Shown here one piece after another: positions 2,152-28,525 of a stretch of 64,000 nucleotides of DNA. Location: assembly GCA_045643185.1 (NCBI GenBank), contig JAZUKH010000279.1, positions 3,301-67,300 of the forward strand. Direction: 5' to 3'. Position 1 is the stretch's first letter. Each line of letters starts with the position of its first letter. A model generated the notes under the pieces. The model did no database searches. It was not told the DNA's origin and saw nothing but the letters and a program-made list of their open reading frames with translations. Made by a program: the position numbers and the translations under genes. The stretch is from Myxococcota bacterium (GTDB lineage: Bacteria > Myxococcota_A > Bradymonadia > UBA4248).

Positions 2152-2202
2152 ACTTTCAAATCAATGCTTGAATTCATAGGAAAACTCTGATTATGTATAA
2201 GG

Positions 2203-2265: not shown

Positions 2266-2321
2266 CTGCGGCGCTTCCAACAGGTTAATCAGCCTTTCCG
2301 TTCAATTTTTGGAGATTATAA

Positions 2322-2714: not shown

Positions 2715-2724
2715 CATCATCAAC

Positions 2725-2752
2725 GGCAGGCTTAACCGCCTGCCGCTTTTTT
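2725..2752 (+). terminator. Rho-independent terminator
   Basis: ggcaggcttaaccgcctgcc hairpin followed by gctttttt. Confidence 0.6.
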
Positions 2753-2796
2753 GTCTCAAACACGCTTGACGATGCCTGCAAACTGGCAGGCGTTGC

Positions 2797-2871
2797 GGGG
2801 CGCGAGCCCCGCACGGGGGGTAGCGGCGTATTTGCTTTGCAAATAGCCGCGCAGGGGGAGTCGGCCCCCGG
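2797..2871. repeat. Palindromic intergenic repeat, family A variant
   Basis: gggg…GGGTAGCGGCGTATTTGCtTTGCAAATAGCCGCGcaggggg. Same GGCGTAT/ATAGCC core as the other copies. Confidence 0.65.
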
Positions 2872-2943
2872 ATACTTCTGATCTTAAAGTGCCATAACCT
2901 GGTCGCGACCATTGTATGCCGCACCGATTTATCTTTTTGTGCC

Positions 2944-4506
2944 ATGATCGACGTAATTTTTGAAAACGATGACATCCTTGTTGTGAACAAACCCACGGGC
3001 ATTCCCACGCACGCCCCGAATGACGAAAAAAAAGGCGTCGTCGAGCTGCTGCAGGACGAACGCGGCATAAAACTCGGCGTGCACAGTCGACTGGATGAAG
3101 GCACGAGCGGCACGCTCGCGTTTTCGAAATCAAGACTGGGTGCTGAAATGCTCACAAAAGCCTTCGAACTCAAAGACGTTCGCAAGTATTACTACGCGAT
3201 CGTGTGCGGCAAACCGGCCAAAGACGCGGGCGAGTGGTGTCACAAGCTGACACATCAAAACGGCGTGACGTTTGAAGACGAGAAGGGGAAGGTTGCGAAA
3301 TGCAAATACCGCGTTGTGACCACGTGCGCCCCCTTCACGCTGCTTGAGCTGCAGCTTCTGACGGGCATGACGCACCAACTGCGCGTGCAATGCGCCCTTG
3401 AAGGCATGCCGATTCTGGGCGACGCGCTGTACGGCGGCGGCGATCAAGCGCCGCGCCTGTGCCTGCATGCGCACAAACTCATTTTGATGAGCGAAAAAAA
3501 TCTGCCGCACTTTGTCGCGCCACTGCCTGACATCATGGTCAAACCAAGTCCAGAGAAGCTGTTCAACTTTATTTTTAAGTCGATTGCCGGACGACTTGGC
3601 GCCATGCCTGCGACCGAAGCGATCCGCGTTGCGGTGCCGCAGCACTCCGGGGTGCCTGAGATCCTCGTCGAAAAACTTGCCAACACATTGCTCGTGCGCC
3701 ACCTGGAACCGGCCAAAACCTCGTTGTGGACGGCTGCGTCGCTCGAAGCGCTCATGCGCGTGGCTGACCGAGTGTTTAAATGCAGCCAGAATGCCTATCG
3801 CGTGCACGAATCGCCCGAAAAGTCGAAAGCCTGTCGCGCCTTCGAGCGGGCGTTTGACCAAACGCCTGAACCATTCACGGCGACAGAACTGGGTCAAAAA
3901 TACACGTTTGACCTGACGGGCAATGCCGTGGGCCTCTATCTCGATCAGCGTGAAAACCGTGACTGGGTCATCAAAAATGCCCACGGCAACGTGCTGAATC
4001 TGTTTGCCTATACGTGTGCGTTCTCACTTTGTGCCGCGAAAGCCCAGGCTACGACGGGCACGGTCAGCATCGACGCGGCAAAAGCCGCGCTCAATCGCGG
4101 ACGAACAAACTTTGAAGAAAACGGTCTTTCGCTCGACGGGCATCGTTTTATCGTCGAAGATGCCCAGAAATACCTCGATCGATGCGCCAAAAATGGCACC
4201 CAGTTCGACACGATCATTTGTGATCCACCCAGCTTTGGGCGTTCGGGCAAAGTCGTGTTTTCGCTCGACGACGCGCTGGAAGACCTCGTGATGGGCTGTG
4301 TCCGTGTTGCTGCCCCCGGCGCCACGATCCTGTTCTGCATCAATCACCGAAAGATCCGCTTGTCGCGCTTCAAACAGGCTTTCGAAAAAGCACTCAACGC
4401 CTGTCAAAAACGCACGGCAGCCTTTGAAGCGTTCATCAACGATGACGCGTGTGGTCCGCTCGGCGTTGGCACCGACCTCAAAACCATTCGCGTCACGCTC
4501 AAATAA
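2944..4506 (+). CDS. Fusion protein: RluA-family pseudouridine synthase (N-terminal) plus class I SAM-dependent RlmI/RlmL-like rRNA methyltransferase (C-terminal)
   Basis: N-terminal VVNKPTGIPTHAP…HSRLDEGTSG (RluA catalytic Asp motif HxRLD) and LHAHKL. C-terminal FDTIICDPPSF (DPPxF motif of RlmI-type MTases). Confidence 0.65.
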   Translation: MIDVIFENDDILVVNKPTGIPTHAPNDEKKGVVELLQDERGIKLGVHSRLDEGTSGTLAFSKSRLGAEMLTKAFELKDVRKYYYAIVCGKPAKDAGEWCHKLTHQNGVTFEDEKGKVAKCKYRVVTTCAPFTLLELQLLTGMTHQLRVQCALEGMPILGDALYGGGDQAPRLCLHAHKLILMSEKNLPHFVAPLPDIMVKPSPEKLFNFIFKSIAGRLGAMPATEAIRVAVPQHSGVPEILVEKLANTLLVRHLEPAKTSLWTAASLEALMRVADRVFKCSQNAYRVHESPEKSKACRAFERAFDQTPEPFTATELGQKYTFDLTGNAVGLYLDQRENRDWVIKNAHGNVLNLFAYTCAFSLCAAKAQATTGTVSIDAAKAALNRGRTNFEENGLSLDGHRFIVEDAQKYLDRCAKNGTQFDTIICDPPSFGRSGKVVFSLDDALEDLVMGCVRVAAPGATILFCINHRKIRLSRFKQAFEKALNACQKRTAAFEAFINDDACGPLGVGTDLKTIRVTLK

Positions 4507-4557
4507 ACTCAATTAAAATAGATGAGTTTTGGCGCCGACACACGTCGGCGCACTCAC

Positions 4558-5604
4558 CTAGGCGTGCGGCAGCATACACGTCACAAAACAAAGTGCCGAC
4601 GCACAATCAAACTCGATCTCGCTGAACTGCGCCGAGATCATGCCAGACTCACCCGTCGCAAACGCCATTGACGATTCCGCGCTACGACAGGTACAACGGC
4701 CTTCCAACGTAATCAGGCTCTTGAGCTCAGAGGGCAACGACAAAGTCGCGCGCCCCGTTCCCTGAAGCACGAAAAACACGAGCTCGTTGCGTATTGTAAT
4801 TTTGCGAACACAGAACGACGGCGTCTCAACGACCGACACAGCCGGCAGCACAAAGTCGTCTGCCGCCATGACGTTGCGCTCAAGATTCACCCAGTTCAGC
4901 CCGGCCTCAACGTGAAGCGGCCGATACGCACCGTTTTCATCCAACGAGCCCTCGGCATTATAGCGTCGATTCCAGTCATACAAGCGTAGCGTCAGACCAT
5001 TCTTACCCGGCTTCATGACCTGCGGTTCGACGACCGACACGCCCTTCCCCAGGGCGTGCACGACACCTGGTGGTATCATCACCATTTCGTGGGCATGAAC
5101 CGGCACAAAACGCAAGTCATCGCGCAGATCACCGTGCGAGTAAAGCGTCTCACGAAGCCTGTCTAACGTCACATGCGGTTGAAAACCAAGATAGATACCG
5201 GCATTCGGTTCGGCGTGAAGCACGTACCAGGCTTCCCACTTGCCCGACATGCCTTGTTCAGCGATCTCGGCTTCGACAGGCGGATGAATTTGAACCGACA
5301 AGTCCATCGCCGCGTCGATCGTTTTGATCAGCATCGGCGTGCTCTTGCCCCAGTGCGAAATGTGACCCGCGCTCAACCACGAAGCGGATTCAGTATCCAA
5401 AATGTCATATAGCGGACGATCCGTCTCAAGTTCACGGGACGGAAATTCTTTGAAAACTGAAAAATCCCACGATTCGCCCACAGGTTTATCAAACTGAGCC
5501 CAGCGTTCGCCTGCGCGGTACACGCGCGGAATGCGCTTACCGCCCCACGGCGTTCTTTGCGGACTCATAATATTATCATTGCGAAATTTAAGAATACCAA
5601 ACAT
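4558..5604 (-). CDS. manA: Class I mannose-6-phosphate isomerase-like cupin protein
   Basis: Key motifs (ESWDFS, LSVQIHP, GKWEAWYVL, PPGVVHALG, VVEPQ) and a length of about 335 aa match type I PMI. The start may be M13 (MSPQRTPWGGK). Confidence 0.55.
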   Translation of the reverse strand: MFGILKFRNDNIMSPQRTPWGGKRIPRVYRAGERWAQFDKPVGESWDFSVFKEFPSRELETDRPLYDILDTESASWLSAGHISHWGKSTPMLIKTIDAAMDLSVQIHPPVEAEIAEQGMSGKWEAWYVLHAEPNAGIYLGFQPHVTLDRLRETLYSHGDLRDDLRFVPVHAHEMVMIPPGVVHALGKGVSVVEPQVMKPGKNGLTLRLYDWNRRYNAEGSLDENGAYRPLHVEAGLNWVNLERNVMAADDFVLPAVSVVETPSFCVRKITIRNELVFFVLQGTGRATLSLPSELKSLITLEGRCTCRSAESSMAFATGESGMISAQFSEIEFDCASALCFVTCMLPHA

Positions 5605-5681
5605 GAATTTACCAAATCAGCCCATACAAAAAGCACAACACAGCCCTAGGCTGCGCTCAAACAACCAACATTTCTTCTAAT

Positions 5682-6785
5682 TTATTGCTTTGACCCACTA
5701 AAATCGAAGAGTTGTTCCCACTTCTCGCGGTTATTTTCCCAGGAATTCTCGGTTATCCAGGCCAATGCCTTATCGGCCTTTTGTGTGAGTGGTTCGCCTG
5801 CAGAAAGATCATTAAAGAAGTGAACGATGGCGTTTGTAAGTGCTTTCACATGTTCTTCGGGCGAGTCGTAGTTGTAAAACCATCCGACCTCGTCGTAATT
5901 TGGATTATCTTTGATACTGCCAATGAGCGGCATGATCATCGGCTTGTGATACGAACAAGCCATCCAGAACGTTCCGGAATTGAGCGAACTGCGCTGGTCA
6001 TAAGGCGCAACGAGCGCTTCAGCCAGATCTAAATAATCACCCAATTCTTCATTGGCCACATAGTCGATGTGAAAACGAACGAGATCCGACGTTTTTTCAA
6101 AAGCGTGGTTGAGCTCATCAATGTATTGTTTGGAGCTGCATTTTCCAACGATCAAAAGCGTGACATCACGTTTGCCCGTCTCTTCCACAGCTTTTTCGAA
6201 GCCTTCCAGCAGGATCTCGATATTTTTATAGGGCGCGATACTGCCCGAAAATAGCAAAACCTTGTGATCTTCCGGAATATTAAACTTTTTCTTAAGATCA
6301 GCCCCCGTGCGACCGTAGTTATTAAAGTAATCCCCATGAGGCACGACGACACATTTGTCACGATACGGCGCTACGATCGGCAAATCCAGGGATTCACGAC
6401 ACAACAAATGAATGCGCGAAGCATGTTTGGCAACCGTCTCCATGACTTTTTTAGAATACACATCGGTCGCCTTGTCATGCGCAACCTTATTGTGCAGCGT
6501 CCAAACGATGTTTTTGCCCGTCAAAGCGAAATAATACACAAACGCCTGACGCGCCCGACAAGAGATCATGCGCTCAAAGTCGTTTTTGCCTTTAACGCGC
6601 TCTATCCAGTTAAAATGCACCGTGTCACACGTAAACAGCGGCAACAAATAATGCGAGAGCAATTCGTCAGCGCCAACAACATCGTATGCCTTGGAAAGCA
6701 AATTCACAAGGTTGGGCAAATATAGATTGGCTGCCTTACGGGCAACCGGGTACATCAAAATTTGAGTTTTTTTAGATCTAGCCAT
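5682..6785 (-). CDS. Glycosyltransferase (GT4/group 1-like)
   Basis: C-terminal Rossmann region with LLFSGSIAPYKNIEILLEGF…LLIVGK and E…E typical of the GT-B retaining fold. 367 aa. Confidence 0.5.
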   Translation of the reverse strand: MARSKKTQILMYPVARKAANLYLPNLVNLLSKAYDVVGADELLSHYLLPLFTCDTVHFNWIERVKGKNDFERMISCRARQAFVYYFALTGKNIVWTLHNKVAHDKATDVYSKKVMETVAKHASRIHLLCRESLDLPIVAPYRDKCVVVPHGDYFNNYGRTGADLKKKFNIPEDHKVLLFSGSIAPYKNIEILLEGFEKAVEETGKRDVTLLIVGKCSSKQYIDELNHAFEKTSDLVRFHIDYVANEELGDYLDLAEALVAPYDQRSSLNSGTFWMACSYHKPMIMPLIGSIKDNPNYDEVGWFYNYDSPEEHVKALTNAIVHFFNDLSAGEPLTQKADKALAWITENSWENNREKWEQLFDFSGSKQ

Positions 6786-7124: not shown

Positions 7125-9149
7125 ATGCTCAATTTAGTAAACCTGTTACTGGTTTTGACCATATCTGCCATCATGACGGGCAGCAATGCGAATGTTGGCC
7201 CAGGCGGACCGGGCATGATGCCGCCACCCGGCGGACACGGCGGACCAGGCATGCCGCCACCGCCACCGATGATGCACGGCGACCTGACCGGCAAGACCGG
7301 TGAATTTATTCCCGTTCCAGAAGTGAACGTCATGCCCCCGCTTGAAGCCGAACCCACCTTCGATGCCTCTCAGTGTATTGCCATCGACCTCGCCCATGCC
7401 AAATCCCCCAACGACAACCTCGTGATCGTCAAAAACGACAAAGATGATCCGACCCAGATCGAGATCAAACTCGCCGTTGACAACGCCTGCATCAAACTCG
7501 TCGGTGCCTGGAACGGCAGCGTCGTTTTCAAAAATCCAAACAGTTACAACGCCAACGTCATTTTGGACAACGTCAAGCTGACCGCCAAAGACGGCGCTCC
7601 CGCTTTTCTCAAACTCAAAAGCTCCAGAAAAGACGCTGGTGTCCGCTATAACCTGCATTTGGTCGGTCAAAACACCATCGAAGGCGGCTACACAAAAAAA
7701 TCTAACAAAATCATTGAATGTGAACCGAGCCTCGACATCACCGGCACGGGCAGTTTGAACGTCATTGCCCACTATAAAACTGGCATTGACGTCGGCGACG
7801 CACTCAAGATCTACAACGGCACGACGCGTATTACCGTCGATCGCACAGAAAACACCGTTTGGGCTGCCAAAGATGACTCCGACCAAGTCGAAATCGAAAA
7901 AGGCTTCGGCATCAAAGCCACGAACAGCTTTGAAATGGTCGGTGGCGCACTCGTCATCAATGGACACGACACCAAGATCGACGACGGCTACCAGACGCGA
8001 GGCATCAAAGTCGACGGCAGTGAATCTGACTATGGCGCCGGTAAAGGCTTTATCAAGATCTCCAACGGCGATGTCGTCATTCAAACCGATGGCAAGGGCA
8101 TGTCCGCCGGTTGGAAAGTAAGCGAAGACGCTGAAACGCCGACCACGTCGGACGACCCGATACCCGACGTCATGATCTCCGGCGGTCGCTTCAGGATCAC
8201 GACGTTTAGCACGCCGATCGAGTCAATGGGATTCCCCGGTCAGAAAAAGGAAGTCGACCCCAACGCGACACCAGACCTTAGTCCCGAAGGCATCGAAGCC
8301 AAGCACCACCTCACGATCACAGGTGGCGAATTTCTTATTCGCACGACCGATGACGGCATTCAGGCCGCCGAAAAAGTCACGTTGGCCGGCGGCACCGGCA
8401 TCGTCATGTCTCCGGGCAACGACGCAGTCGACAGCAACGGCGTCATAGCCATCGACGGCGGCACCTGGGCGATCTTCGGCTCTGGGGCGCCTGAAACCGG
8501 GCTGGACGCGGATTCTTCCAAAAATGTCTCATACAGCGGCGGCTGGCTCTTCGCCATGGGAGGCGATAACAACGCGCCCGGCACGGTCACCGCGCCCGGC
8601 TCGTTCGTTCAAAAATCCAATGGCGGACATGGTGGACCCGGCGGACATGGCGGTCCCGGCAGACATGGCGGACCAGGCGAGATGATGCCGCCACAGGATG
8701 GCATGGGCGGACCCGGCGGACGACCCGGTGACATGATGCCGCCACCAGGTGGCATGGGCGGACCCGGCGGCGAACAGGTCAAACTGGCCGGCAAATACAT
8801 CGCCGTCACAGCCGTCGATTCTGACGACGTCATTGCCGCAGTACGTGTGCCCGACAGCTACGAAGGCGGCTCCGGAATCCTCGTCCTCAACGACGCCTTC
8901 GTCAAAGACACGGTCTATACGCTCCACATCGGCCCAGACCTCCAGGCTGCGTCCGACGCGACCTGGTATGGCGACGTCATTCTGAACGGCAATGCCAAAG
9001 TCTCGGGCGGCGAAAGTGAACCCGTCACAGGCGGCCTTTCGACCGGTCACGACATGGGACCGGGCGGTCCCGGCGGTCATCGAGGCCCGCGCGGTCAACA
9101 AAGTCGCGCGGCCAAGATCATGAACGCCATCATTATGTCGATCCGCTAA
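7125..9149 (+). CDS. Secreted beta-helix-like protein with Gly/Pro/Met/His-rich low-complexity termini
   Basis: Signal peptide MLNLVNLLLVLTISAIMTGSNA. N-terminal GGPGMMPPPGGHGGPGMPPPPPMMHG. C-terminal GGHGGPGGHGGPGRHGGPGEMMPPQDGMGGPGGRPGDMMPPPGGMGGPGG and …GHDMGPGGPGGHRGPRG. The central region has repeated ITxxGG/IxIDGG strands, possibly a Cthe_2159-like carbohydrate-binding beta-helix. Confidence 0.5.
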   Translation: MLNLVNLLLVLTISAIMTGSNANVGPGGPGMMPPPGGHGGPGMPPPPPMMHGDLTGKTGEFIPVPEVNVMPPLEAEPTFDASQCIAIDLAHAKSPNDNLVIVKNDKDDPTQIEIKLAVDNACIKLVGAWNGSVVFKNPNSYNANVILDNVKLTAKDGAPAFLKLKSSRKDAGVRYNLHLVGQNTIEGGYTKKSNKIIECEPSLDITGTGSLNVIAHYKTGIDVGDALKIYNGTTRITVDRTENTVWAAKDDSDQVEIEKGFGIKATNSFEMVGGALVINGHDTKIDDGYQTRGIKVDGSESDYGAGKGFIKISNGDVVIQTDGKGMSAGWKVSEDAETPTTSDDPIPDVMISGGRFRITTFSTPIESMGFPGQKKEVDPNATPDLSPEGIEAKHHLTITGGEFLIRTTDDGIQAAEKVTLAGGTGIVMSPGNDAVDSNGVIAIDGGTWAIFGSGAPETGLDADSSKNVSYSGGWLFAMGGDNNAPGTVTAPGSFVQKSNGGHGGPGGHGGPGRHGGPGEMMPPQDGMGGPGGRPGDMMPPPGGMGGPGGEQVKLAGKYIAVTAVDSDDVIAAVRVPDSYEGGSGILVLNDAFVKDTVYTLHIGPDLQAASDATWYGDVILNGNAKVSGGESEPVTGGLSTGHDMGPGGPGGHRGPRGQQSRAAKIMNAIIMSIR

Positions 9150-9303: not shown

Positions 9304-11130
9304 ATGTGCGGAATTACAGGATGTGCCGGAACGACGAACTGCGTTCCGATGATGATCGAAGCATTAGGCCGACTCGCCTATCGTGGTTATGATTCAGCAG
9401 GCGTAGCGGTTTGTGATAATGGTAAAATTCTTCTTCGACGTGAACACGGAAAACTCGAAAACCTGAAGTTATTGCTGGAAAAACTCCCCATTGAAGGTAA
9501 GACCGGCATTGGGCACACGCGTTGGGCAACACACGGACGTCCGAGCGAGTCAAATGCCCATCCACAATGTTATGGCAAGATCGCCATCGTTCATAACGGC
9601 ATCATCGAAAACTTTTTAACGCTTCGCAGTGACCTCGAAGCACAAGGCCACATTTTTTCGTCCGAGACCGACACCGAGATCGTCGCGCACCTGATTTCAG
9701 ATGCTTACGAAGCGAGCGGTGACTTTCCGCGTGCCGTGCGTGAAGGTCTGGCTCAGGTGCGCGGCGCATACGCCATCGTCGCCATTTGCGCTGACTGCCC
9801 AGACGAACTCATTGCCGCACGCATGCAAAGTCCACTTCTGATCGGTCTCGGTGACGAAATGAATTTTGCGACGAGTGACATTTCTGCGGTACTCGCCTAC
9901 ACACGTCGCTTCGTCTTTATGGAAGACGGCGACTTCGCCCGTCTGACACACGACCAGGTCACGTTTTTTAATGCCAATGGCGAAACGCTCAAACGCGAAC
10001 CCAAAACGATCGAATGGGACGTGCACGCCGCTGAAAAACAAGGCTACGCCCACTACATGCTCAAAGAGATCTTCGAGCAGCCGGCCAAGATCACCGATAC
10101 CTTCCGCGGCCGCATCATGAGCGAGTCCGCATCCGTTAACCTCGACGCCGACATCTGCGCCCTGGAACTCGAAAAAGCCGAACGCATCCAGATCGTCGCG
10201 TGCGGAACCAGTTATCACGCAGGCCTTATCGGCAAATACATGATCGAAAAAATGGCCCGTGTCCCCGTCGAAGTCGATGTCGCAAGCGAATACCGTTACC
10301 GCGACCCCATCTTGTGCGGCCGTGACGGATTTATTGCCATCAGTCAAAGCGGCGAAACCGCCGACACTTATGCGTGTGTCAAAATGGCGCGCGCGGCCCA
10401 TGCCAGGATCCTGTCGATCTGCAACGTCATGGATTCCAGCATTGCACGCGCGTCCAACGCCACGTTCTACACGCGTGCCGACCCCGAGATCGGCGTGGCC
10501 TCGACCAAAGCCTTCACGACCCAGGTAGCCTCGCTCATGTTGCTCGCCATTCACCTCGGTCGAAAACGCGGCACCTTGTCGGTCGAACGCGCCCATGAAT
10601 GCCTCGAAGCCATCCGTCGCGCCCCAAAAGAAATGGAAAAAATGCTCGAACAGTCCGAACGCGTCCGAAAAACCGCGCAAAAACTCCTTCGAGCCAACTC
10701 GTTCCTCTATCTCGGACGACACGTCCACTACCCCATCGCCCTCGAAGGCGCGCTCAAACTCAAAGAGATCACCTACATCCACGCGGAAGCCTATCCAAGC
10801 GGCGAGATGAAACACGGTCCCATCGCGCTCATCGACGATCGACTCCCCGTCATCGTCATCGCCCCCAAAAACTCTACTTACGAAAAGACCCTGTCCAACC
10901 TTCAGGAAGTGCGCGCACGCGGTGGTCGCATTATCAGCATCGTTTCAGAAGGCGACGAACAGATCTCAAAACTCTCTGAAGCCGCCTTCACCATCCCGGA
11001 TTGCGACGAATTCGTTCAGCCGCTCTACTCCGTTCTCTATCTCCAACTGCTCGCCTATCACCTTGCCGATCTGCTCGGTCACGACGTCGATCACCCAAGA
11101 AATCTGGCCAAATCCGTCACCGTCGAGTAA
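9304..11130 (+). CDS. glmS: Glutamine--fructose-6-phosphate aminotransferase
   Basis: MCGI(T)G N-terminal nucleophile Cys2, GHTRWATHG, two SIS domains, and …KSVTVE at the C-terminus. 608 aa. Confidence 0.9.
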   Translation: MCGITGCAGTTNCVPMMIEALGRLAYRGYDSAGVAVCDNGKILLRREHGKLENLKLLLEKLPIEGKTGIGHTRWATHGRPSESNAHPQCYGKIAIVHNGIIENFLTLRSDLEAQGHIFSSETDTEIVAHLISDAYEASGDFPRAVREGLAQVRGAYAIVAICADCPDELIAARMQSPLLIGLGDEMNFATSDISAVLAYTRRFVFMEDGDFARLTHDQVTFFNANGETLKREPKTIEWDVHAAEKQGYAHYMLKEIFEQPAKITDTFRGRIMSESASVNLDADICALELEKAERIQIVACGTSYHAGLIGKYMIEKMARVPVEVDVASEYRYRDPILCGRDGFIAISQSGETADTYACVKMARAAHARILSICNVMDSSIARASNATFYTRADPEIGVASTKAFTTQVASLMLLAIHLGRKRGTLSVERAHECLEAIRRAPKEMEKMLEQSERVRKTAQKLLRANSFLYLGRHVHYPIALEGALKLKEITYIHAEAYPSGEMKHGPIALIDDRLPVIVIAPKNSTYEKTLSNLQEVRARGGRIISIVSEGDEQISKLSEAAFTIPDCDEFVQPLYSVLYLQLLAYHLADLLGHDVDHPRNLAKSVTVE

Positions 11131-12816: not shown

Positions 12817-13167
12817 TTAACGCGGCCAGCAGGCGTAGTCCACTGCACAATACTCATATCTTGTATCGCAGTTGTAATCGCCCGTGCAATACGGACGGCA
12901 GTTACCGTCAGAAGCACAGATCTCAGAGGTCGTGCAGCTGGAGCCATCGACGCAACCACCATAGCAAAGACCATCGGCAGCGCAGTATTCATTCCAACCG
13001 CAATCCGTGTGATAGTGGCAACGTGAATAACAGTGGTGATCTACCGCACAGTACTCATCATAACCACATTCGTAGTCATAATCACAACCATCTTCAACGA
13101 TGATGCAACCATTCAGACCAAATGCGGCAAAACAAAGCGTCAAAAGGGATAATGCGATTTTCTTCAT
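12817..13167 (-). CDS. Small secreted cysteine-rich protein (116 aa, about 22 Cys)
   Basis: Signal peptide MKKIALSLLTLCFAAFGLNG. Repeated CxxDxxC/YxYC spacing (DYDYECGYDEYCAVDHHCYSRCHYHTDCGWNEYCAADGLCYGGC…). Divergent from the large Cys-rich lipoprotein gene at 13456. Confidence 0.55.
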   Translation of the reverse strand: MKKIALSLLTLCFAAFGLNGCIIVEDGCDYDYECGYDEYCAVDHHCYSRCHYHTDCGWNEYCAADGLCYGGCVDGSSCTTSEICASDGNCRPYCTGDYNCDTRYEYCAVDYACWPR

Positions 13168-13455
13168 AGCGGAATCTCCTAGATCAAATCTGAATGATCA
13201 AATCATTCATCAATATAGATTGAGTATACGCAAAGCGTAACTAACGAACAACAGAATAAACTGCTTTTGGGAAAGCGACCGGTCATCGCGACGATGGCCA
13301 ATCGTTTTCTCAGAAACAATGACGGGAAATAAATCAACAATCGTGCCAAATTATTAGAAAAGAAAAATAATTTTCTCTTTTAAGCAGAACAAACATGCGC
13401 TAATAAGTGATCAGGATAAGTATTTTAATGTTGTAGCTTATCAAAGGAGAACAGA

Positions 13456-16422
13456 ATGAAACAAAAGCTCATTTTTTTTGCGGGCATGATGTCAGCTTTG
13501 CTGATGTCAGCCTGCGACGACGATTCTATCAAACTCAACGCGACTTTGGCGGGTGAAGGTGAAGACTGTACCTTAAATGATTGCGAAGACGGTCTCACCT
13601 GCGATGAAGAAAGCCAGGTCTGTGTGAAGTCAGAGGAGATTCCTCCGTCTGATTTGTGTGCCAACAAAAAATGCGACACCAACCAGGTCTGCAAGAACGG
13701 CAAATGTGTCGCCAAAGACAAAGAGAACGGCGGCGAATGCGGTGGCAAAACGTGTGCGGAAGACGAGATCTGCAACAATGCCACGTGCATCAACGAAGAT
13801 CGAGTCTGCCCCGACACCATCTGCGCCGAAGACGAGATCTGCTACAAAGATAAAGAATGCCTCAAACGCGGTAACTGCGACGGCCATGCCTGTAATGAAG
13901 GCCAACTCTGTTTGAACGGCATCTGCCACGATCCCGGCGATTGCGGTGGACTCACCTGTAACTCAAACGAAGTCTGTGAAAAGAATGTCTGTCGACAGTA
14001 CGGAACTTGTGGCGGTTTCAAGTGTTTTTCAGACGAAGTCTGTAACTTCGACGAATGTCTGCCCCAAGGCCCGTGCGGCGGCGCGCTTTGCAAGGACACC
14101 CAGTTCTGTGCCAACGGCCACTGCCAAAACAAAGAGCTCTGTAACGACATCTATTGCGCCCCTGGCCAAGTCTGTGTCGATGGCGTCTGCGCCAACGGCC
14201 CCCAATGTGTCATCGATGAAAAGTTTCTGACGCGTTGTGGCGATAACTGTTGTACGGAAAAAGAATTCTGCGGCGACCGAAGCCATTGCTGCTCCTACGA
14301 AAATGCCTGCGGACAGGATTGCTGCCAGGACGGCGAACAATGCGTCAACGAAATGTGCCACAGAATCTGCGAACATGACCGCTGTGAACAACTTGACGGG
14401 TCTGAAATCTGCTGCGACGCCGGCGAGATTTGCGTTTCTAACCAGTGTTTCAAACCGCAGACGTCATGCATCGACTCGTATATGTGCGATAACAGCGAAT
14501 ATTGCGACACCGCCACGAACACCTGTCTGCCCAAGCCCCAAACGGAAGCCTGCATGGCCACTCCGAAAGGCGGCGCCGTCATTCCGACACAGCTTTGGTA
14601 TTGGGGAAGCGGAAACCTCGCTCCAAGCGCGTCGGAATTCCCCAATCACCGTGACGTCATGTCTTCACCAATGGTCGCCGACGTGGACGGGGATGGTGAC
14701 GCAGAAGTCATCTTCAACTCCTTCAACGGCAGCTGGAATGGTAACGGCATTCTTCGCATCCTCGATGGCAAAACAGGAAAAATGAAGGCCTTCAGTAACG
14801 GCAATCCATACACGGATGGCGGAAGCCAAACCGCCGTTGGCGACATCATCCCCAGTAATCCGGGACTCGAAATCGTCACAAGCACTGCAGTCACGATCAA
14901 TGGTGCCACCTATTATAAACTCGCCGTGTTTGACAATAAGGCAAAACTCATTTGGCAGCATACAGAAGGCGAGTACCACGAATGTGGACAGGGCGGCCCG
15001 GGGATCGCTGACTTTAATGGCGACGGATTACCAGAAGTTTATAGCCGATACAACGTCTTTAACGGACAAACCGGGGAACTCATCGCCAGAGAAAGCTGTG
15101 CCACGTGCGGTGAAAACAACGTACAACACGCCTATAACGAATACCCCGTCGCGGCGGATATCAACGAAGATGGCACGCTCGAACTCGTCGGCGGCAATGT
15201 CGCCTACAAAGTCATATTCCCTGACAAAGAACATAACGTCGCCGGAAAGCTCGAGCCCATTTACTTCAGAGATGATCTCTCGGATGGCTACCCGGCGATC
15301 GGTGACCTTGACAACGATGGGCATCCTGAAGTCGTGATCGTTCAACCGAATGGCAACAGTTCACTCATGGCGATTCATGGCAAAGACGGCTCCAATTTCT
15401 GGGACAAACCGATTGATACCTCCAGCATTGGCCTCGGCGGACCTGCTACGATCGCCAACCTTGACAATACGCCGGAACCCGAGATCACATTTGCGGGTAA
15501 ATACAAATACATGGCATACAACGCCAAAGGCGAGCTCTTGTGGTCACGCTTCACCCACGACCAGACCTCTGGCAAAACAGGCTCCTCCGTTTTCGATTTC
15601 GACGGCGATGGCAGAGCCGACGTTGTCTATGCTGACGAGTATTTCCTCCGCGTTTACGACGGCCAAACAGGCAACACCAAGTTCTGTAAATGCAACACGT
15701 CAGGTACTCACTGGGAATACCCCGTTATCGCTGACGTCAATAACGATGACCACGCTGAGATCGTCGTGGCAGGCAACACCACATGCAACATGACAAGCTG
15801 TCCAACTTCACTGTCCGTGAACGACGGATGGGACGAATGCGTTGACAGCATCATGAAATCCCCCAACGCAGCTGACCGAGCAGGCATCCGCGGCGTTCGT
15901 GTCTTCTCGAGCCCCGACCGCGACTGGGTCAATACGCGCAAAATTTATAACCAACACGCCTATAGCATCACCAACGTTTCTGATGATGGAACCATCCCAA
16001 GACACCCCAAAAAGAACTGGGAGATCGACAACCTCAACAACTTTCGTCTTAACGTTCAGCCGGGCGCAAACTACCTGCCCGACCTGTCGATCAAAAACGT
16101 TTCGTCGAGTATGACCTGCTCTGATAACCTCCCGCTCTACTTCACCGTCCAAAACGTCGGTTGGGCAACCGCTCTGCCCGGCATTCAGATAAATATCTTC
16201 TCAAGCGCGAGTGCAAACGGTTCCTACGAGAAGCTCGGTTCTATCTCGACCACACGTATGCTGCGCGCAAGCGAAAGCGAAGACCTCGCCTTCACCATCA
16301 AACAAGAACAAATCAAGTCTAATCCGCTCTACCTCGAACTCACCTTTGATGAGACTGCACCCACAGAATGCCGAAACGACAACAATACGGCATTCTACGC
16401 GCTGACCTGCGCCATTTACTAA
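13456..16422 (+). CDS. Large lipoprotein: tandem 4-Cys (Myxococcales-type Cys-rich) repeats, 7-blade FG-GAP/VCBS-like beta-propeller and a C-terminal Ig/CARDB-like domain; integrin-alpha-like adhesin
   Basis: RBS aggag before the ATG. Lipobox LLMSAC. At least 8 tandem ~23-aa modules of the form CxxxxCxxx(E/Q)xCxNGxCxxxxx (for example CANKKCDTNQVCKNGKC, CGGKTCAEDEICNNATC). These are followed by Ca-binding DxDxDG loops (DVDGDGDAEV, DFNGDGLPEV, DINEDGTLELV, DLDNDGHPEVV, DFDGDGRADVVYAD, DVNNDDHAEIVVAG). Paralog of 35080..38103. Confidence 0.7.
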   Translation: MKQKLIFFAGMMSALLMSACDDDSIKLNATLAGEGEDCTLNDCEDGLTCDEESQVCVKSEEIPPSDLCANKKCDTNQVCKNGKCVAKDKENGGECGGKTCAEDEICNNATCINEDRVCPDTICAEDEICYKDKECLKRGNCDGHACNEGQLCLNGICHDPGDCGGLTCNSNEVCEKNVCRQYGTCGGFKCFSDEVCNFDECLPQGPCGGALCKDTQFCANGHCQNKELCNDIYCAPGQVCVDGVCANGPQCVIDEKFLTRCGDNCCTEKEFCGDRSHCCSYENACGQDCCQDGEQCVNEMCHRICEHDRCEQLDGSEICCDAGEICVSNQCFKPQTSCIDSYMCDNSEYCDTATNTCLPKPQTEACMATPKGGAVIPTQLWYWGSGNLAPSASEFPNHRDVMSSPMVADVDGDGDAEVIFNSFNGSWNGNGILRILDGKTGKMKAFSNGNPYTDGGSQTAVGDIIPSNPGLEIVTSTAVTINGATYYKLAVFDNKAKLIWQHTEGEYHECGQGGPGIADFNGDGLPEVYSRYNVFNGQTGELIARESCATCGENNVQHAYNEYPVAADINEDGTLELVGGNVAYKVIFPDKEHNVAGKLEPIYFRDDLSDGYPAIGDLDNDGHPEVVIVQPNGNSSLMAIHGKDGSNFWDKPIDTSSIGLGGPATIANLDNTPEPEITFAGKYKYMAYNAKGELLWSRFTHDQTSGKTGSSVFDFDGDGRADVVYADEYFLRVYDGQTGNTKFCKCNTSGTHWEYPVIADVNNDDHAEIVVAGNTTCNMTSCPTSLSVNDGWDECVDSIMKSPNAADRAGIRGVRVFSSPDRDWVNTRKIYNQHAYSITNVSDDGTIPRHPKKNWEIDNLNNFRLNVQPGANYLPDLSIKNVSSSMTCSDNLPLYFTVQNVGWATALPGIQINIFSSASANGSYEKLGSISTTRMLRASESEDLAFTIKQEQIKSNPLYLELTFDETAPTECRNDNNTAFYALTCAIY

Positions 16423-21998: not shown

Positions 21999-23492
21999 AT
22001 GTTCACAACCAATCTTTTGTTGACCTTGCTCTTTTTGGCAGTCACGCTCGGTGTGTTTTATGTCGTGCCTGCCTCCAGAAGGTGGATGGTTCTGCTTACG
22101 GCAAGCGTGATTTTTTACGCATCAGCACATCCATACCTGCTTTGGCTCGTCGTCGCAACCGTCACATGGACCTGGTTTGTCGGCCTCAAACTCACAGCCG
22201 CTTCACAAGGCGCTTCGCGCAAATCCTGGCTCGTCGCAGGCATCCTGCCCATCGTACTCGTGCTTGGCGTCTTCAAATACTTCAACTTTTTTAGCACTTC
22301 CATCGCCGAACTGCTCAACCAATTTGGACTTGCCGCCGACCCGCTCACGCTCCAGCTCGTGCTGCCACTCGGCCTCTCATACTACTCGTTCAAGCTCATC
22401 AGCTACCTCGTCGATCTCTACCGCACAAAACGTGAAGCAGAATGCCATCTGGGCTATTTTGCAACCTACACACTCTATTTTCCACAGATCCTGTGTGGTC
22501 CCATTGAGCGTTCCACCACGTTTCTTTCTCAACTTCACGCTGGACCAGTTTTTGACCAGACACGTTTCGCCATAGGCATTCAACGCATCATCCTCGGTCT
22601 GTTCAAAAAAGTCGTCATCGCAAACAGCCTAATTTTGTATGTCGACAAAGTCTTTGCTGCACCTCAACAATTTCCAGGGCTCGCCCTTTGGACTGCTGCT
22701 TTTTTGTATTCCGTACGAATTTATTGTGATTTCTCTGGCTATTCAGACATCGCCGTCGGCATGAGTCAGATGTTCGGCCTTGATTGTCCCAATAACTTCA
22801 ATTGCCCGTATTTGGCTCGCAATAACCGCGACTTCTGGAACCGCTGGCATATTTCTCTTTCGACCTGGCTGCGTGACTACATTTATATTCCGTTGGGCGG
22901 CAACCGCGTAGGCGCCTGGCGACACCGTCTGAACATTCTCATCACATTTTTTGTGAGCGGTCTTTGGCACGGTGCCAACTGGACTTTCGTGTGTTGGGGA
23001 CTCATTCATGGCGTCTGGAACATGCTGACGCCCAAAACCAAACGAGCCACAACAAACACGCCAGCTTCCAATCAGACAACACAACCAGCTACCACCACAC
23101 GCCGTTTTACGTCCACCCTGGTTTTGATCTGTCAGACTTTGTTAACCTTTGCTGGTGTGACGGCTGCCTGGATCTTCTTTCGATCACCCAGTTTAGGTGC
23201 CGCATGCGACTATTTTGCCCGTATGTTCACGGCTTTTTCGCTCACACCACAGGCATTGGCACTCGCCATTTTGCCCTTTACCGGCGATAACACATGTCTC
23301 ATACATTTTTTGGCGTCGATGGGCTTCATTCTTTTCCTCTTCATCTATGAATGTCGACAAACTTATGCGCGTCATTCAATACAGAACGATGACAAGCCGG
23401 TGCTGTCCATGCCTGTTTTTACCATGATGCTTGTGGCCATCCTCATGTTTGGTGCCTTCGGTCAATCCAGTTTTATGTATGCCAACTACTAA
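21999..23492 (+). CDS. MBOAT-family membrane O-acyltransferase (AlgI/DltB/PatA-like)
   Basis: Polytopic; CDFSGYSDIAVG, FWNRWHISLSTWLRDYIYIPLGG, and the catalytic His in GLWHGANW. Confidence 0.8.
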   Translation: MFTTNLLLTLLFLAVTLGVFYVVPASRRWMVLLTASVIFYASAHPYLLWLVVATVTWTWFVGLKLTAASQGASRKSWLVAGILPIVLVLGVFKYFNFFSTSIAELLNQFGLAADPLTLQLVLPLGLSYYSFKLISYLVDLYRTKREAECHLGYFATYTLYFPQILCGPIERSTTFLSQLHAGPVFDQTRFAIGIQRIILGLFKKVVIANSLILYVDKVFAAPQQFPGLALWTAAFLYSVRIYCDFSGYSDIAVGMSQMFGLDCPNNFNCPYLARNNRDFWNRWHISLSTWLRDYIYIPLGGNRVGAWRHRLNILITFFVSGLWHGANWTFVCWGLIHGVWNMLTPKTKRATTNTPASNQTTQPATTTRRFTSTLVLICQTLLTFAGVTAAWIFFRSPSLGAACDYFARMFTAFSLTPQALALAILPFTGDNTCLIHFLASMGFILFLFIYECRQTYARHSIQNDDKPVLSMPVFTMMLVAILMFGAFGQSSFMYANY

Positions 23493-23501
23493 CGCCCTGC
23501 C

Positions 23502-24452
23502 ATGAATCTCCTTAAACGATATCTCATCCTCATCGCAGTCGCCTTCGTTCTCGTCGTTCTGCTTAGCCTGGTCAAAAACGAGTTTGCTCGACATTTACCC
23601 GGCTACGACACCGGACTGCCTGCCGTTGAAAGGGAATCGGCATCCAACCAGCTAGATGCTCTATTCATGGGATCCTCGACATTCAAACGCGGTCTGGACA
23701 TGACGCAATTCGACCAGGCCGGACGAAACGGGGCGTTTTTAGTGGCCTACAATGGCAATCAACCCTTCACGATGCAGATGGCCTTGTCCGAATTGTGGTC
23801 ACATGGTGTGCGTCCCAAACGCCTGTACGTGGATTTTTACCCCTACCTTGTGGCCGCCAACCCCAAACTGAGTGACGCGCGTCTTCTGGTTGAGACCGAC
23901 ACAGCCTTCAAATGGTCTTTATGGCGACGCCTGTGCGAAGCGGATGCCTGTGACGCCACGACGTTTCACGAAACATTCGTCACCTCAAACAACGTACTGA
24001 TCCTGTTTTGGCCGCTCTACCGTTGGATGAATCGAGAAAAAACGTATCGAGGCGCATCACGGGTTCCCATGCCAGGTTCGACGACTGACCAGTTGAATAC
24101 CAAACCGCTTTTTGGACAGCGCGACGGGCTTCAAAGCATTCAGTTGACAGCCCTGCAACGCCTGACCGAAGAGGCCAAATCGCTGGGCATCGAGGTTTAC
24201 TTCGTCGAAACACCCAAATACACGCGCCTCCAAAACGACCATACCTATCAGACCTATTTGCAAGCCATGATCGATGCAGCATTGACCTATTTGCCGCGCG
24301 AAAATTTGATCTTGGCGAGCGACCTGACATTTGACCAAAGCGAACCGACGTATTTTAATGATCTGGTACACCTTTCTACAACCGGCGCAAAAGCCTTCAC
24401 AACAGAGCTGATTCGTGCAATCGAACGTGTCGATAAAAAATCAAAAAAATAG
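23502..24452 (+). CDS. MBOAT partner protein (DltD/AlgJ/AlgX-like SGNH-type, N-terminally anchored)
   Basis: Single N-terminal TM (LILIAVAFVLVVLLSL). The C-terminal DLVHLSTTG (DxxH) is typical of SGNH-like acyltransfer partners. Encoded immediately 3' of the MBOAT gene. Confidence 0.5.
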   Translation: MNLLKRYLILIAVAFVLVVLLSLVKNEFARHLPGYDTGLPAVERESASNQLDALFMGSSTFKRGLDMTQFDQAGRNGAFLVAYNGNQPFTMQMALSELWSHGVRPKRLYVDFYPYLVAANPKLSDARLLVETDTAFKWSLWRRLCEADACDATTFHETFVTSNNVLILFWPLYRWMNREKTYRGASRVPMPGSTTDQLNTKPLFGQRDGLQSIQLTALQRLTEEAKSLGIEVYFVETPKYTRLQNDHTYQTYLQAMIDAALTYLPRENLILASDLTFDQSEPTYFNDLVHLSTTGAKAFTTELIRAIERVDKKSKK

Positions 24453-25531: not shown

Positions 25532-28525
25532 TTGAAATATCAGGTATCGGAGAAAGCGCCCCGCGCGTGGCTTCAATTTGAGGCGATTTGGATAGCGGTC
25601 ATTCTGCTTTTATGTTTAGCAGGCCTGGCAGTCAGCTACATCGTGCCCAAAATTAACTTCGACACAGCTGTTGTCGGCACCAATGTCGTCGTCAAACGCG
25701 CGCCTGAAGACGAAGTCATACACCAAGGCGACATCATCGAAGCCATTGACGGTCAAACGATCTCGACCCGTGCTGAACTCTACTACCAACTGGCGCGCCA
25801 TCCCGAACAAGTCGAAGCGACCATCAAACGCAACGGCGCACGTTTCGTCCGTCCCGTCACGGCTGCATCCCTTGCCAATGACACGCTCCCTGTCGGTCTC
25901 ACCCCCGAAGATCGTCCCATTGCCATTAGTTTCGGCGGCGACTACTCTACACTTGAAGGCTATGAGATCAGTCAGCTTCATAACCTGCTCATCGAAAACC
26001 GGGCGGAAAATGCTTCCGTCGTCTTTAGGCGCCCCACCGAACAGACCAATGTCCTGCTTAACTTTAAGCCCGCAATCGGACGAACACTGATCCTTTCGGC
26101 AACGTTGCTCCTCATCATCGTCATGGGCTTTGTCGCACTCAGAATGCGACAAAACGTCATGAAAGGCGTCTATATCAATACGGTGCTTGGTTTGACCGTA
26201 TTGGCTGCCATGTGGACGATTTTGGGCGCAACCTTGCTTTGTATGCCCATTCTCTTCCTATTTGGCATGATCGCCATGGGAATGCTCAAGTCCTTTGACC
26301 TGAATTACCACATCTGGGATACAAACAAGCTTCAAAAACCCAATCTTTGCCTCAGAACGGTTCTGTATCTGATTCCCGCTGTTTGTCTGTTGGCACCGAT
26401 CGTCATGTGTTTGAAAGAACTCCCCATGATATGGGGTGGTTCGAACGATGCCCTGAGCGAGATCAGACTCGATGCGCTCTCCATTATTCCGGTTTTATTG
26501 GTCATTGGCATGACCATGATCGATGCCGGTCGCAGCGCCTATCGCGCTTACAGCGGGCGCCGTTTACAGCCCCGTGACTTTGCACTGTTTATCGCATTTG
26601 TCCTCGCACTCACTAGTTTAGTCATTATGTGGAGTGACTTTGCGACGGCACGTATTATTCTGGTCGCGACGCTGATCGCACAGGCCACGGGTGACGCTAT
26701 GGAATGCTTTACCAAGCGTGCACTCCAAAAAGATGTCTCTTACGATGACGATATTTTCGCGGCGGATCCCATTCGTGAAGCGCTCGAAGAAGCTGAAACG
26801 ATCTTGAATCACGCGTGGGTCGTACAAGCCATCATTGATCGCCCAGAACCTCGTCACGTCGTGGCCATCGCCGCGTCGGATGACACAGACGAGGACGTCA
26901 ACGGACTCGCCTTACACGTGCTGTCAAATACGTGGCGCGATTTTCTCGATATTTACCGCGTCGAAGGCATGATCGAAGGGGGGGATTCTCCCGCCTGCGA
27001 CATCGCGAATCGACTCGGTATCGTCTTCGCCCAACCCATTGCAGAAAAAGTCGGCGGTTCGCTGACCAGCATCACGCTCTTGGTCAGCACAAGAGAAATG
27101 CCCGACGCCAACGCGCCACAAAACGCATCGCCCAGCGTTTCACAGCGCGCTGCTCTGTCAAAAATTGCTGAAAAACTCGCTGAAAACGCACTCGCACTCG
27201 TCTATCACTCCACCGAGATGAGCCTTGAATACATCGGCGATGACCTTGACGAAATCGCAAATCGCATTCACAACACGGCTTCTTTCCCGCGTGCTTTGCA
27301 CAATCCAACGATCCCACTCCTCGCTACGGAGATCCCACACGGCCTGCTCGAAGAAGATGACGTCCAACAAGCTGACGATGATGTCGTCGAGATACAAGAT
27401 CCAGAACAAAATATAGACGACTACAGCACTAAAGTCTTTCAGGAAGAAGTCAACCTGCTGCGCAGTCAGGTCCACACTTTGTGTAGTCAACAGATCCGTG
27501 CCTTTGCCCTCGCGGAGATCGAGTTCACCGAAGATCAAAAAGCAGCCCTTGAAGACCTCAGATCCCTCGAAACCCCAATCGTGTTGATCGGTGAAAGAGG
27601 CGTCGGCAAAACAATTTTGACGCTTTCGGCCCATCAGGAACGATGCGAAGGACCGTTCTTGCAGATCGACGCAGGTGAGATTCCTGAAACGATCCTGGCG
27701 CTCGACATGTTTGGCGATTCTGAACATCCCGGCCTGATCAAAAGCGCTGTCGGCGGCTCGTTGCTCATCAAAAACGTCGACAAACTCTCAACACCGATCA
27801 TCAGTGACATCATGGAAGCCATCGACGCGGTTGCCGCTGAAGGCACCATCGATCTTTACATGACGATCGCAATTCGGGATGACGAAGTGATCACCTCCAA
27901 GTTTGACCGCCACCCCAACCTATTGCCAGAACGCTGTCGTGAAATCATCGATCACTGCGACGCAGAAACCGTGTTCCTCAAACCACTTCGTGAACAGGAA
28001 GACATCCTGGATGCGGCGATGTTCTTCATGCAGCGCCAGTCCATGCGAAGCGACAAGAACATCATGAGCATCGAAACGAATGCCCAGGCTGCTTTAAGCA
28101 CCTATCGTTGGCCGGGCAACTTCTCGGAACTTCGTTCAGTGATCGAACGCGCCGTCATGCGTGCAGAAGGCGACGCCTTGACTGTTCACGACCTCGGCGC
28201 CGATTTTGCCTCGCTCATCAACGCCGACACCAAAAATACCTCGCTCGACCAAATCTATTACGAACAGATCGAGCAATTACAAACATTAAATGAAAAACAA
28301 CTTGCACAGATCGATCGACTGAATGAGCGCATCAAAACGCTCGAATCCTCGCAGGATACCCCCCAAGATGACTTCACAGTCGGCACGTTCGACGAGATCG
28401 AAAAAGCTATGCTCGTGCGTATCCTTAACCGATACCACAATGATCCCGAAGTCGCCGTCGAAGCCCTCGCTACGAACAAAACCAAATTCTTTAATAAATT
28501 AAGAAAATACGGCCTTTATTCTTAG
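25532..28525 (+). CDS. Membrane-anchored regulator: N-terminal TM, PDZ domain, polytopic TM region, degenerate sigma-54-interaction (AAA+) domain, C-terminal Fis-type HTH
   Basis: TTG start with RBS aggga. IWIAVILLLCLAGLAV (TM). PDZ-like DEVIHQGDIIEAIDGQTISTRAELYYQLA. About 6 TM helices at residues 190-380. PIVLIGERGVGKT (Walker A, GESGTGK-like). LLIKNVDKL (Walker B-like). No GAFTGA. WPGNFSELRSVIERAV (WPGNxREL). C-terminal LVRILNRYHNDPEVAVEALATNKTKFFNKLRKYGL (HTH). Confidence 0.65.
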   Translation: MKYQVSEKAPRAWLQFEAIWIAVILLLCLAGLAVSYIVPKINFDTAVVGTNVVVKRAPEDEVIHQGDIIEAIDGQTISTRAELYYQLARHPEQVEATIKRNGARFVRPVTAASLANDTLPVGLTPEDRPIAISFGGDYSTLEGYEISQLHNLLIENRAENASVVFRRPTEQTNVLLNFKPAIGRTLILSATLLLIIVMGFVALRMRQNVMKGVYINTVLGLTVLAAMWTILGATLLCMPILFLFGMIAMGMLKSFDLNYHIWDTNKLQKPNLCLRTVLYLIPAVCLLAPIVMCLKELPMIWGGSNDALSEIRLDALSIIPVLLVIGMTMIDAGRSAYRAYSGRRLQPRDFALFIAFVLALTSLVIMWSDFATARIILVATLIAQATGDAMECFTKRALQKDVSYDDDIFAADPIREALEEAETILNHAWVVQAIIDRPEPRHVVAIAASDDTDEDVNGLALHVLSNTWRDFLDIYRVEGMIEGGDSPACDIANRLGIVFAQPIAEKVGGSLTSITLLVSTREMPDANAPQNASPSVSQRAALSKIAEKLAENALALVYHSTEMSLEYIGDDLDEIANRIHNTASFPRALHNPTIPLLATEIPHGLLEEDDVQQADDDVVEIQDPEQNIDDYSTKVFQEEVNLLRSQVHTLCSQQIRAFALAEIEFTEDQKAALEDLRSLETPIVLIGERGVGKTILTLSAHQERCEGPFLQIDAGEIPETILALDMFGDSEHPGLIKSAVGGSLLIKNVDKLSTPIISDIMEAIDAVAAEGTIDLYMTIAIRDDEVITSKFDRHPNLLPERCREIIDHCDAETVFLKPLREQEDILDAAMFFMQRQSMRSDKNIMSIETNAQAALSTYRWPGNFSELRSVIERAVMRAEGDALTVHDLGADFASLINADTKNTSLDQIYYEQIEQLQTLNEKQLAQIDRLNERIKTLESSQDTPQDDFTVGTFDEIEKAMLVRILNRYHNDPEVAVEALATNKTKFFNKLRKYGLYS

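Follow-up and report, generated by a model that had tools for sequence, protein, structure and literature searches.

The stretch of DNA analyzed here (the window) comprises 64,000 nucleotides (nt) of contig JAZUKH010000279.1 (positions 3,301 to 67,300, forward strand; GenBank assembly GCA_045643185.1) from a bacterium of the Myxococcota (GTDB lineage Bacteria; Myxococcota_A; Bradymonadia; UBA4248). At 13456..16422 (+) it contains an open reading frame (ORF) for a protein of 988 amino acids, the subject of this study, whose β-propeller was found to be a homolog of the one common to Bap1 and RbmC of Vibrio cholerae. The features of the gene, in window coordinates, are as follows:

13444..13449 (+), Shine-Dalgarno sequence AAGGAG, 6 nt upstream of the ATG at 13456, read from the sequence
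13456..13515 (+), lipoprotein signal peptide, residues 1 to 20, with lipobox LMSA/C20, from the translation and family conservation
13567..14205 (+), array of nine four-Cys modules, residues 38 to 250, from Cys spacing, module register, and an AlphaFold2 (AF2) model
14206..14553 (+), CC-rich neck, residues 251 to 366, joining stalk to propeller, with 23 Cys, including five CC doublets
14554..16065 (+), eight-bladed FG-GAP/VCBS β-propeller of the Bap1/RbmC type, residues 367 to 870
15565..15588 (+), pocket segment TSGKTGSS, residues 704 to 711, equivalent in the alignment to 6mlt_A to Bap1 N550-S551-G-K553 (metal and sugar contacts)
15700..15723 (+), pocket segment SGTHWEYP, residues 749 to 756, equivalent in the alignment to Bap1 G596-T597-L598-W599 (metal-coordinating turn and sugar-stacking Trp)
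15775..15891 (+), blade-8 insert, residues 774 to 812 (about 38 residues), with 3 Cys and a short helix at 794 to 800 (DSSP)
16069..16419 (+), CARDB-like seven-strand β-sandwich, residues 872 to 988, with conserved C972 and C985

The translated N terminus, MKQKLIFFAGMMSALLMSA followed by Cys20, is a lipoprotein signal. Cys20 is kept in at least 90% of the aligned relatives (n = 40), and in close homologs with a complete N terminus the signal peptide likewise closes in a G/A/S-C lipobox. Residues 2 to 17 form a helix in the AF2 model, which was computed from the 40-sequence family alignment and has a mean predicted local distance difference test (pLDDT) score of 86.4 and a predicted template modeling (pTM) score of 0.69. 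Judging from these sequence features, the protein would be lipid anchored at Cys20 after signal peptidase II cleavage, and its exposure at the cell surface is plausible. Of its 71 Cys, 60 lie N-terminal to residue 367. There is no hydrophobic helix at its end (residue 988), and a single CARDB-like sandwich follows the propeller. An earlier interpretation made without database searches (the sequence-only reading) had proposed this ORF, the lipobox, and the order of domains, from the lipobox through a Cys-module stalk and an FG-GAP propeller with Ca-type loops to a CARDB-like tail, and all of these were confirmed. The architecture is a new arrangement of known parts rather than a new kind of system.

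The propeller is matched by Pfam families FG-GAP_3 (PF13517; E value, 1.8e-22; 80.1 bits against a cutoff of 26.9) and FG-GAP (PF01839; E value, 1.6e-11; 44.3 bits against a cutoff of 22.1), and an FG-GAP-type Pfam match is present in 40 of 40 family members. Structure prediction, proposed earlier as a check, yielded a propeller at about residues 367 to 870. Inner strands precede the Ca-type loops at residues 406, 460, 516, 565, 612, 665, 711, and 757, so that the propeller has eight blades and not the seven originally claimed; the last blade is closed by the N-terminal strand 378 to 383 together with strand 813 to 818. FG-GAP loops are indeed present, but the count of seven Ca-type loops did not hold: five follow the strict pattern D-x-[DN]-x-[DN]-G-x-x-[ED] (starting at 409, 519, 568, 617, and 714), one is a near match (DVNNDDHAE at 760), and two, at 463 and 668, are degenerate. 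According to the model, these loops would be occupied by Ca. The C-terminal β-sandwich, which had been described as Ig/CARDB-like, was recovered as well, with strands spanning residues 877 to 983 at a pLDDT of about 85 to 95. Searched alone, the tail scores just below the gathering threshold of CARDB (PF07705; E value, 2.9e-4; 21.5 bits against 22.7) over profile positions 2 to 96 of 101, and 4 of 40 family members exceed the CARDB threshold (lowest E value, 1.9e-8).

A comparison of the family profile with the PDB placed V. cholerae Bap1 (6MLT) far above all other structures, with an E value of 1.2e-67. The match consists of two stretches, chain residues 8 to 289 and 439 to 605, which flank the position of the β-prism insert in blade 6. 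The single sequence from the window matches 6MLT with an E value of 6e-27, and a Foldseek search of the PDB likewise returned Bap1 first (E value, 4.1e-23), followed by BBSome subunits and integrins at 1e-11 to 1e-9. [quoted passage not shown] Both sides also have the C-terminal motif W-x-N-x-R-(I)-(W/Y)-N-Q-x-A-(Y/F)...DGTIP. In contrast to Bap1 and RbmC, which are from Vibrio, the myxococcotal protein contains neither the β-prism lectin in blade 6 nor β-γ-crystallin domains. Bap1 chain residues 290 to 438 have no counterpart in the alignment, no β-prism domain was found with Pfam, and blade 6 is continuous in the model. The window protein in turn adds the Cys-module stalk, the CC-rich neck, the blade-8 insert, which is a gap in the alignment to Bap1, and the CARDB-like tail.

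The eight-bladed propeller of Bap1 binds one tetrasaccharide of Vibrio polysaccharide (VPS) at its center (bioRxiv 10.64898/2026.08.03.742583). Four Trp residues, W164, W202, W243, and W599, surround the sugar; N550, S551, G596, and T597 make up an induced metal site; and further contacts are M53, Y88, R118, Y119, and K553 (bioRxiv 10.64898/2026.08.03.742583). The 6MLT chain was converted to the numbering of that paper with an offset of 21 before the deleted 57-residue loop and of 78 after it; chain residues N472-S473 and G518-T519-L520-W521 fit N550-S551 and G596-W599. The Bap1 positions, with their equivalents in the window protein and their occurrence in the family, are as follows:

S551: S705, in 40 of 40 family members
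T597: T751, in 40 of 40
E600: E754, in 40 of 40
D548: D702, in 39 of 40
W599: W753, with 25 W, 8 Y, and 1 F of 40
K553: K707, with 23 K and 4 R of 40
M53: M402, with 29 M of 40
Y88: W427, with 26 Y and 6 W of 40
R118, Y119, W164, and W243: G, S, E, and G, respectively, the Bap1 residue not being kept

As judged from this alignment, the metal/N-acetyl half of the Bap1 pocket is kept, whereas the other half is different.

The stalk that precedes the propeller is built of modules of the form C-(G)-G-x-x-C-x3-(E/Q)-x-C-x-(N/D)-(G)-x-C, with the spacing C-x4-C-x5-C-x4-C and a length of 22 to 27 amino acids each. Eight regular modules start at residues 68, 95, 118, 141, 163, 185, 207, and 229, and an irregular one starts at residue 38. 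From Cys135 to Cys251 the gaps between successive Cys alternate between 5 and 6 over 21 consecutive steps, a strict regularity that agrees with the module formula and the minimum of eight tandem modules given in the sequence-only reading. Each module forms one β-hairpin in the AF2 model (pLDDT, 80 to 95). A separate model of residues 30 to 372 (pLDDT, 84.3) had no convincing structural neighbor in a Foldseek search of the PDB (TM-score, at most 0.14; probability, at most 0.66). The best matches were arrays of small disulfide domains in LRP2/megalin, tumor necrosis factor (TNF) receptors, and Pfs25, and given this weakness a fold assignment was dropped. The neck, with a pLDDT of about 88 to 94, has Cys that are nearly all invariant in the family alignment.

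No Pfam family exceeds its threshold on the stalk, the sole match being a subthreshold one to DUF7107 (E value, 0.032). The attribution of the modules to Myxococcales-type Cys-rich repeats (TIGR02232) was not upheld, as TIGR02232 did not match the whole protein at an E value of ≤1, and neither it nor any other NCBIfam model matched the stalk alone at ≤10. DUF7107, the EB module, Dickkopf_N, and the epidermal growth factor (EGF)- and TNF receptor-like arrays are likewise tandem four-Cys β-hairpin minidomains that serve as spacers in extracellular proteins, but none of these families reaches threshold here, and the 22-residue period C-x4-C-x5-C-x4-C-x5 has no curated model. Among 1.84 billion representative proteins, the stalk profile matched 1,238 at an E value of ≤1e-3 and 275 at ≤1e-10, some over profile positions 241 to 370 only. 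The matches include proteins of 4,000 to 5,000 residues with the array at varied positions, and seven sampled proteins pair it with MopE-type motifs, VWA, He_PIG, Big_9, DUF11, and, weakly, DUF7107. Because it occurs in more than 1,200 representative clusters with varied domain partners, the 22-residue four-Cys module is a widespread bacterial extracellular spacer without a curated family and is not peculiar to the window protein.

Module copy number was compared across homologs, as the sequence-only reading had proposed, and varies from 7 to 12 per array among close homologs (n = 27), in which the Cys count of the array shifts mostly by about one module (31, 37, 41, 45, and 51). Across homologs in other genomes, mean amino acid identity is 37.9% for the array, 54.6% for the neck, 59.6% for the propeller, and 44.7% for the tail, which makes the array the least and the propeller the most conserved region. 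Many Polyangiales relatives match only from about residue 234 to 320 onward, with the neck present and the array absent. Myxococcus relatives match from about residue 377 and have no stalk, and a Sandaracinaceae relative, also without a stalk, has no Cys before the propeller besides that of the lipobox. The change in whole-module steps, the lowest conservation, and the absence from some distant relatives that retain propeller and tail all fit a stalk that acts as a spacer.

At the DNA level, the module region had been described as a tandem repeat and a likely hotspot for slipped-strand expansion and contraction. Tandem Repeats Finder, however, returned nothing in 13400 to 14700, even at a minimum score of 30, and in a direct-repeat search copies spaced by 66 nt were only 62 to 73% identical. 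Five units of exactly 22 codons have pairwise nucleotide identities of 41 to 58%, and no exact direct repeat is longer than 15 nt. On the basis of these searches and of the pairwise unit identities, a contingency locus of near-identical head-to-tail units was rejected, and slipped-strand variation is not expected, because mispairing needs much higher identity than 41 to 58%.

A second, smaller Cys-rich lipoprotein is encoded at 12817..13167 (−), divergently from the gene under study. It has 116 amino acids, a lipobox (LNG/C), and repeats that resemble C-x-x-D-x-x-C-G-x-D-E-Y-C-x-x-D-x-x-C; it had no Pfam or NCBIfam match and was not matched by the stalk profile.

The window contains one further member of the family:

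35074..38103 (+), ancient paralog of 1,009 amino acids with a lipobox, a stalk of Cys modules of another type, a propeller like that of Bap1, and a β-sandwich tail

BLASTP aligns this paralog to the first protein over its full length with 25% identity (E value, 3e-46). Like the first protein, it is matched by both FG-GAP_3 (E value, 4.3e-17) and FG-GAP; it matches 6MLT with an E value of 1.5e-11, and its pocket keeps only the D, S, and T and an aromatic residue. In blade 8, a much larger Cys-rich insert (about residues 740 to 808) lies at the same place as that of the first protein. Its stalk (35251..35970, +) consists of modules of the form C-x5-C-x5-C-x4-C, about 25 to 33 amino acids per unit, with a weak match to the EB module (E value, 0.0012). 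Searched against all ORFs of the window, the stalk profile of the first protein matched neither the paralog nor the small Cys-rich lipoprotein. The second copy that had been noted at 35080..38103 is therefore a full-length paralog, but its stalk modules are different and longer, and its start is at 35074 (35080 is the third codon, also ATG). No third copy was found in the window. A 377-amino-acid lipoprotein with scattered Cys pairs and no Pfam match lies convergent with the paralog at 38342..39475 (−).

Proteins of a Haliangiales metagenome-assembled genome (MAG) and of two MAGs labeled delta-proteobacteria are 33% identical to copy 2, whose identity to copy 1 is 25%. Copy 1 is 38% identical to Polyangiales proteins. 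By these sequence comparisons, the two window copies are ancient paralogs, each with closer relatives in other Myxococcota, and the description of a diversifying pair is not borne out.

About 30 full-length relatives with 45 to 54% identity come from metagenomes or MAGs, and the traceable ones are from ruminant gut samples. When one genome per species was scanned, at least 276 relatives were found to be encoded, with loci in Nannocystis punicea and Enhygromyxa salina among them; most of the best 80 are labeled Myxococcota (Polyangiaceae, Nannocystaceae, Sandaracinaceae, Bradymonadaceae, Haliangiales, and Myxococcus). The closest genomes among the matches listed are MAGs labeled Proteobacteria (from roe-deer omasum), Myxococcota, and Myxococcales, and the gut MAGs labeled Myxococcota or Myxococcales agree with the myxobacterial origin inferred beforehand. 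Databases label the relatives "VCBS repeat-containing protein." In one related MAG (GCA_045599245.1, contig JAZRVP010000042.1, 2784..13024), three family genes lie in tandem, encoding 1,027, 1,010, and 1,007 amino acids. For two of the products, P0012 and P0021, identity is up to 98% between the stalks but 30 to 50% between the propellers, and part of the propeller is 100% identical between P0012 and P0023. This mosaic of identities points to recombination or gene conversion among the tandem copies. In a test of the triplet for positive selection, the ratio of nonsynonymous to synonymous substitution rates (dN/dS) is below 1 in all domains, but dS is saturated, which makes the values uninformative.

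Clustering of the ORFs from 82 loci revealed no conserved neighbor of the family. The only recurring one is a Ser/Thr kinase, found within 6 kb in 9 of 82 loci at varying positions and in varying orientations. Ser/Thr kinases are abundant in Myxococcota, and for this reason the kinase was rejected as a partner. There is no synteny with the locus of the closest homolog either, and the gene therefore acts alone. The neighbors in the window are housekeeping genes and a gene for a Ser/Thr kinase; GlmS, the small Cys-rich lipoprotein, a carbohydrate-binding protein (Cthe_2159), a protein with AIR synthase-related domains, and methyltransferases are among the products encoded there.

Several other genes of the window were recorded. 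At 7125..9149 (+) and 9304..11130 (+), a 674-amino-acid protein with a Cthe_2159 carbohydrate-binding (β-helix) domain adjoins glmS, and upstream of the two, at 631..6785, lie genes for glycosyltransferases, a phosphomannose isomerase, and a starch/glycogen synthase. At 21999..24452 (+), the gene for an O-acyltransferase of the MBOAT family (497 amino acids) is followed immediately by that for a 316-amino-acid protein without a Pfam match; this pair could be AlgI/AlgJ- or DltB/DltD-like and serve in polysaccharide acylation. A 997-amino-acid protein at 25532..28525 (+) has a PDZ domain at its N terminus in addition to a sigma-54-interaction AAA+ domain with lid, a combination unusual for an enhancer-binding protein. 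In a 554-amino-acid protein at 29221..30885 (−), a predicted AAA-ATPase domain and a nuclease domain of the PD-(D/E)XK type (PDDEXK_9) are fused, and a 762-amino-acid protein at 31197..33485 (−) has no Pfam match.

We consider it probable, if by no means certain, that the gene encodes an envelope lipoprotein of an uncultured member of the Myxococcota from the animal gut and that this lipoprotein acts as a stalked, cell-tethered lectin or adhesin for polysaccharide by means of its Bap1-type propeller. The stalk, with about 350 disulfide-rich residues, would be a rigid spacer that keeps propeller and membrane apart. The central pocket would bind polysaccharide, either exopolysaccharide of the cell itself or a foreign glycan derived from the diet, the host, or another microbe, through the metal-assisted site at Ser705/Thr751 and the aromatic residue at 753. 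A sugar specificity other than VPS would be expected, given the differences from Bap1 in the rest of the pocket. The number of stalk modules may change over evolutionary time in whole-module steps and not by present-day slippage. Several points weigh against this function. Half of the sugar contacts of Bap1 are not kept, with G, S, E, and G replacing R118, Y119, W164, and W243. The disulfide pairing and the Ca occupancy are inferred from the predicted model only. Finally, the window protein is lipid anchored and has no conserved polysaccharide gene adjoining it, whereas Bap1 and RbmC are soluble after secretion and their genes lie next to a cluster for exopolysaccharide.

Three other explanations are less well supported than a lectin or adhesin. 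Along the lines of the sequence-only reading, the protein would be an integrin α-like, seven-bladed adhesin from a set of diversifying paralogs, acting in adhesion to prey or host or in self/kin recognition by protein contacts, with a stalk made phase variable by slippage; we regard this as very unlikely. The protein does resemble integrin α in its FG-GAP repeats with D-x-D-x-D-G Ca loops and in its propeller head on an extended leg, a head that is adhesive in integrins, and integrins are among the Foldseek matches, at E values of about 1e-9. Bap1, however, is far closer by both sequence and fold. Moreover, integrin α has seven blades, Ig-like thigh and calf legs, and a C-terminal transmembrane helix, whereas the window protein has eight blades, no thigh or calf legs, and a stalk that is N-terminal, disulfide rich, and lipid anchored. 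The existence of paralogs in the window speaks for diversification, as does the tandem triplet of the related MAG, which differs more in its propellers than in its stalks. Against it stand the antiquity of the window paralogs and the dN/dS values of the triplet, with their saturated dS, and a slippage-driven stalk is contradicted by the lack of a tandem repeat in the DNA. For kin recognition, the protein can be compared with TraA, the kin receptor of Myxococcus xanthus, whose head is PA14-like and polymorphic, whose repeats are of the TIGR02232 type, and whose anchor is a C-terminal MYXO-CTERM. Both proteins are myxobacterial, anchored in the envelope, and carry a head domain on a Cys-rich repeat stalk, but neither PA14, MYXO-CTERM, nor TIGR02232 was detected in the window protein by Pfam and NCBIfam scans. 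In addition, its propeller is the part most conserved across genomes (59.6%) and its modules the least (37.9%), which is the opposite of a polymorphic recognition head.

The propeller might instead be an enzyme, a cell-anchored lyase or hydrolase akin to the rhamnogalacturonan lyases of polysaccharide lyase family 11 (PL11) that degrades dietary or matrix polysaccharide. The family profile matches 4cag and the Bacillus subtilis proteins YesW (2z8r) and YesX (2zuy) with E values of 2e-11 to 1e-8, 11 of 40 family members have the Pfam domain RGL11_C, and the gut or rumen source is rich in plant polysaccharide. YesW and YesX are, moreover, eight-bladed Ca-binding propellers that act on polysaccharide, and their weak profile similarity to the family reaches an E value of about 1e-11. 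Yet these matches cover only profile positions of about 415 to 536 (blades 1 to 3, thus about three blades), a similarity generic to FG-GAP repeats, and the domain context differs. On the window protein itself, RGL11_C has an E value of 0.043, far below gathering, and the residues invariant in the family coincide with the binding site of Bap1. We consider an enzyme improbable. Slightly less so, but still unlikely, is a lipoprotein that faces the periplasm, as a protein-binding scaffold resembling the eight-bladed BamB or as an envelope spacer, and is not an exposed adhesin. Diderm lipoproteins face the periplasm by default, and no secretion or sorting tag was found in the Pfam and NCBIfam scans. 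The roughly 350-residue stalk, the conserved residues of the sugar pocket, and a tail of the CARDB ("cell adhesion related") type nevertheless speak more for an extended adhesin, and the stalk modules also occur in giant VWA/He_PIG/Big_9 proteins, domains typical of surface proteins.

Beyond this single gene, we tentatively suggest, as a possibility that we hold to be rather doubtful, that the whole family, with its hundreds of myxococcotal members, is the myxobacterial counterpart of Bap1/RbmC, a cell-anchored tether whose conserved, metal-assisted central pocket would grip exopolysaccharide or foreign glycans. Tandem paralogs specific to single lineages would swap stalk and propeller segments by recombination and so reshuffle specificity, and in gut myxobacteria the tether might link the cell to dietary, host, or prey polysaccharide.

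The exopolysaccharide-binding propeller of Bap1/RbmC has so far been analyzed within Vibrio, and our literature search found no paper that links Bap1 with myxobacteria. Newly noted here are the specific kinship to Bap1/RbmC, including the core of the pocket, the size of the family in Myxococcota, and the unnamed 22-residue spacer module. Current concepts are unchanged by these findings, and it is mainly annotation that is improved. A large, unnamed family of relatives in Myxococcota keeps the metal- and sugar-binding core of the Bap1 pocket. If the proposed function is correct, this family would be a candidate for the means by which the envelope of myxobacteria, little-known gut lineages among them, is fastened to polysaccharide of the matrix or of foreign origin.

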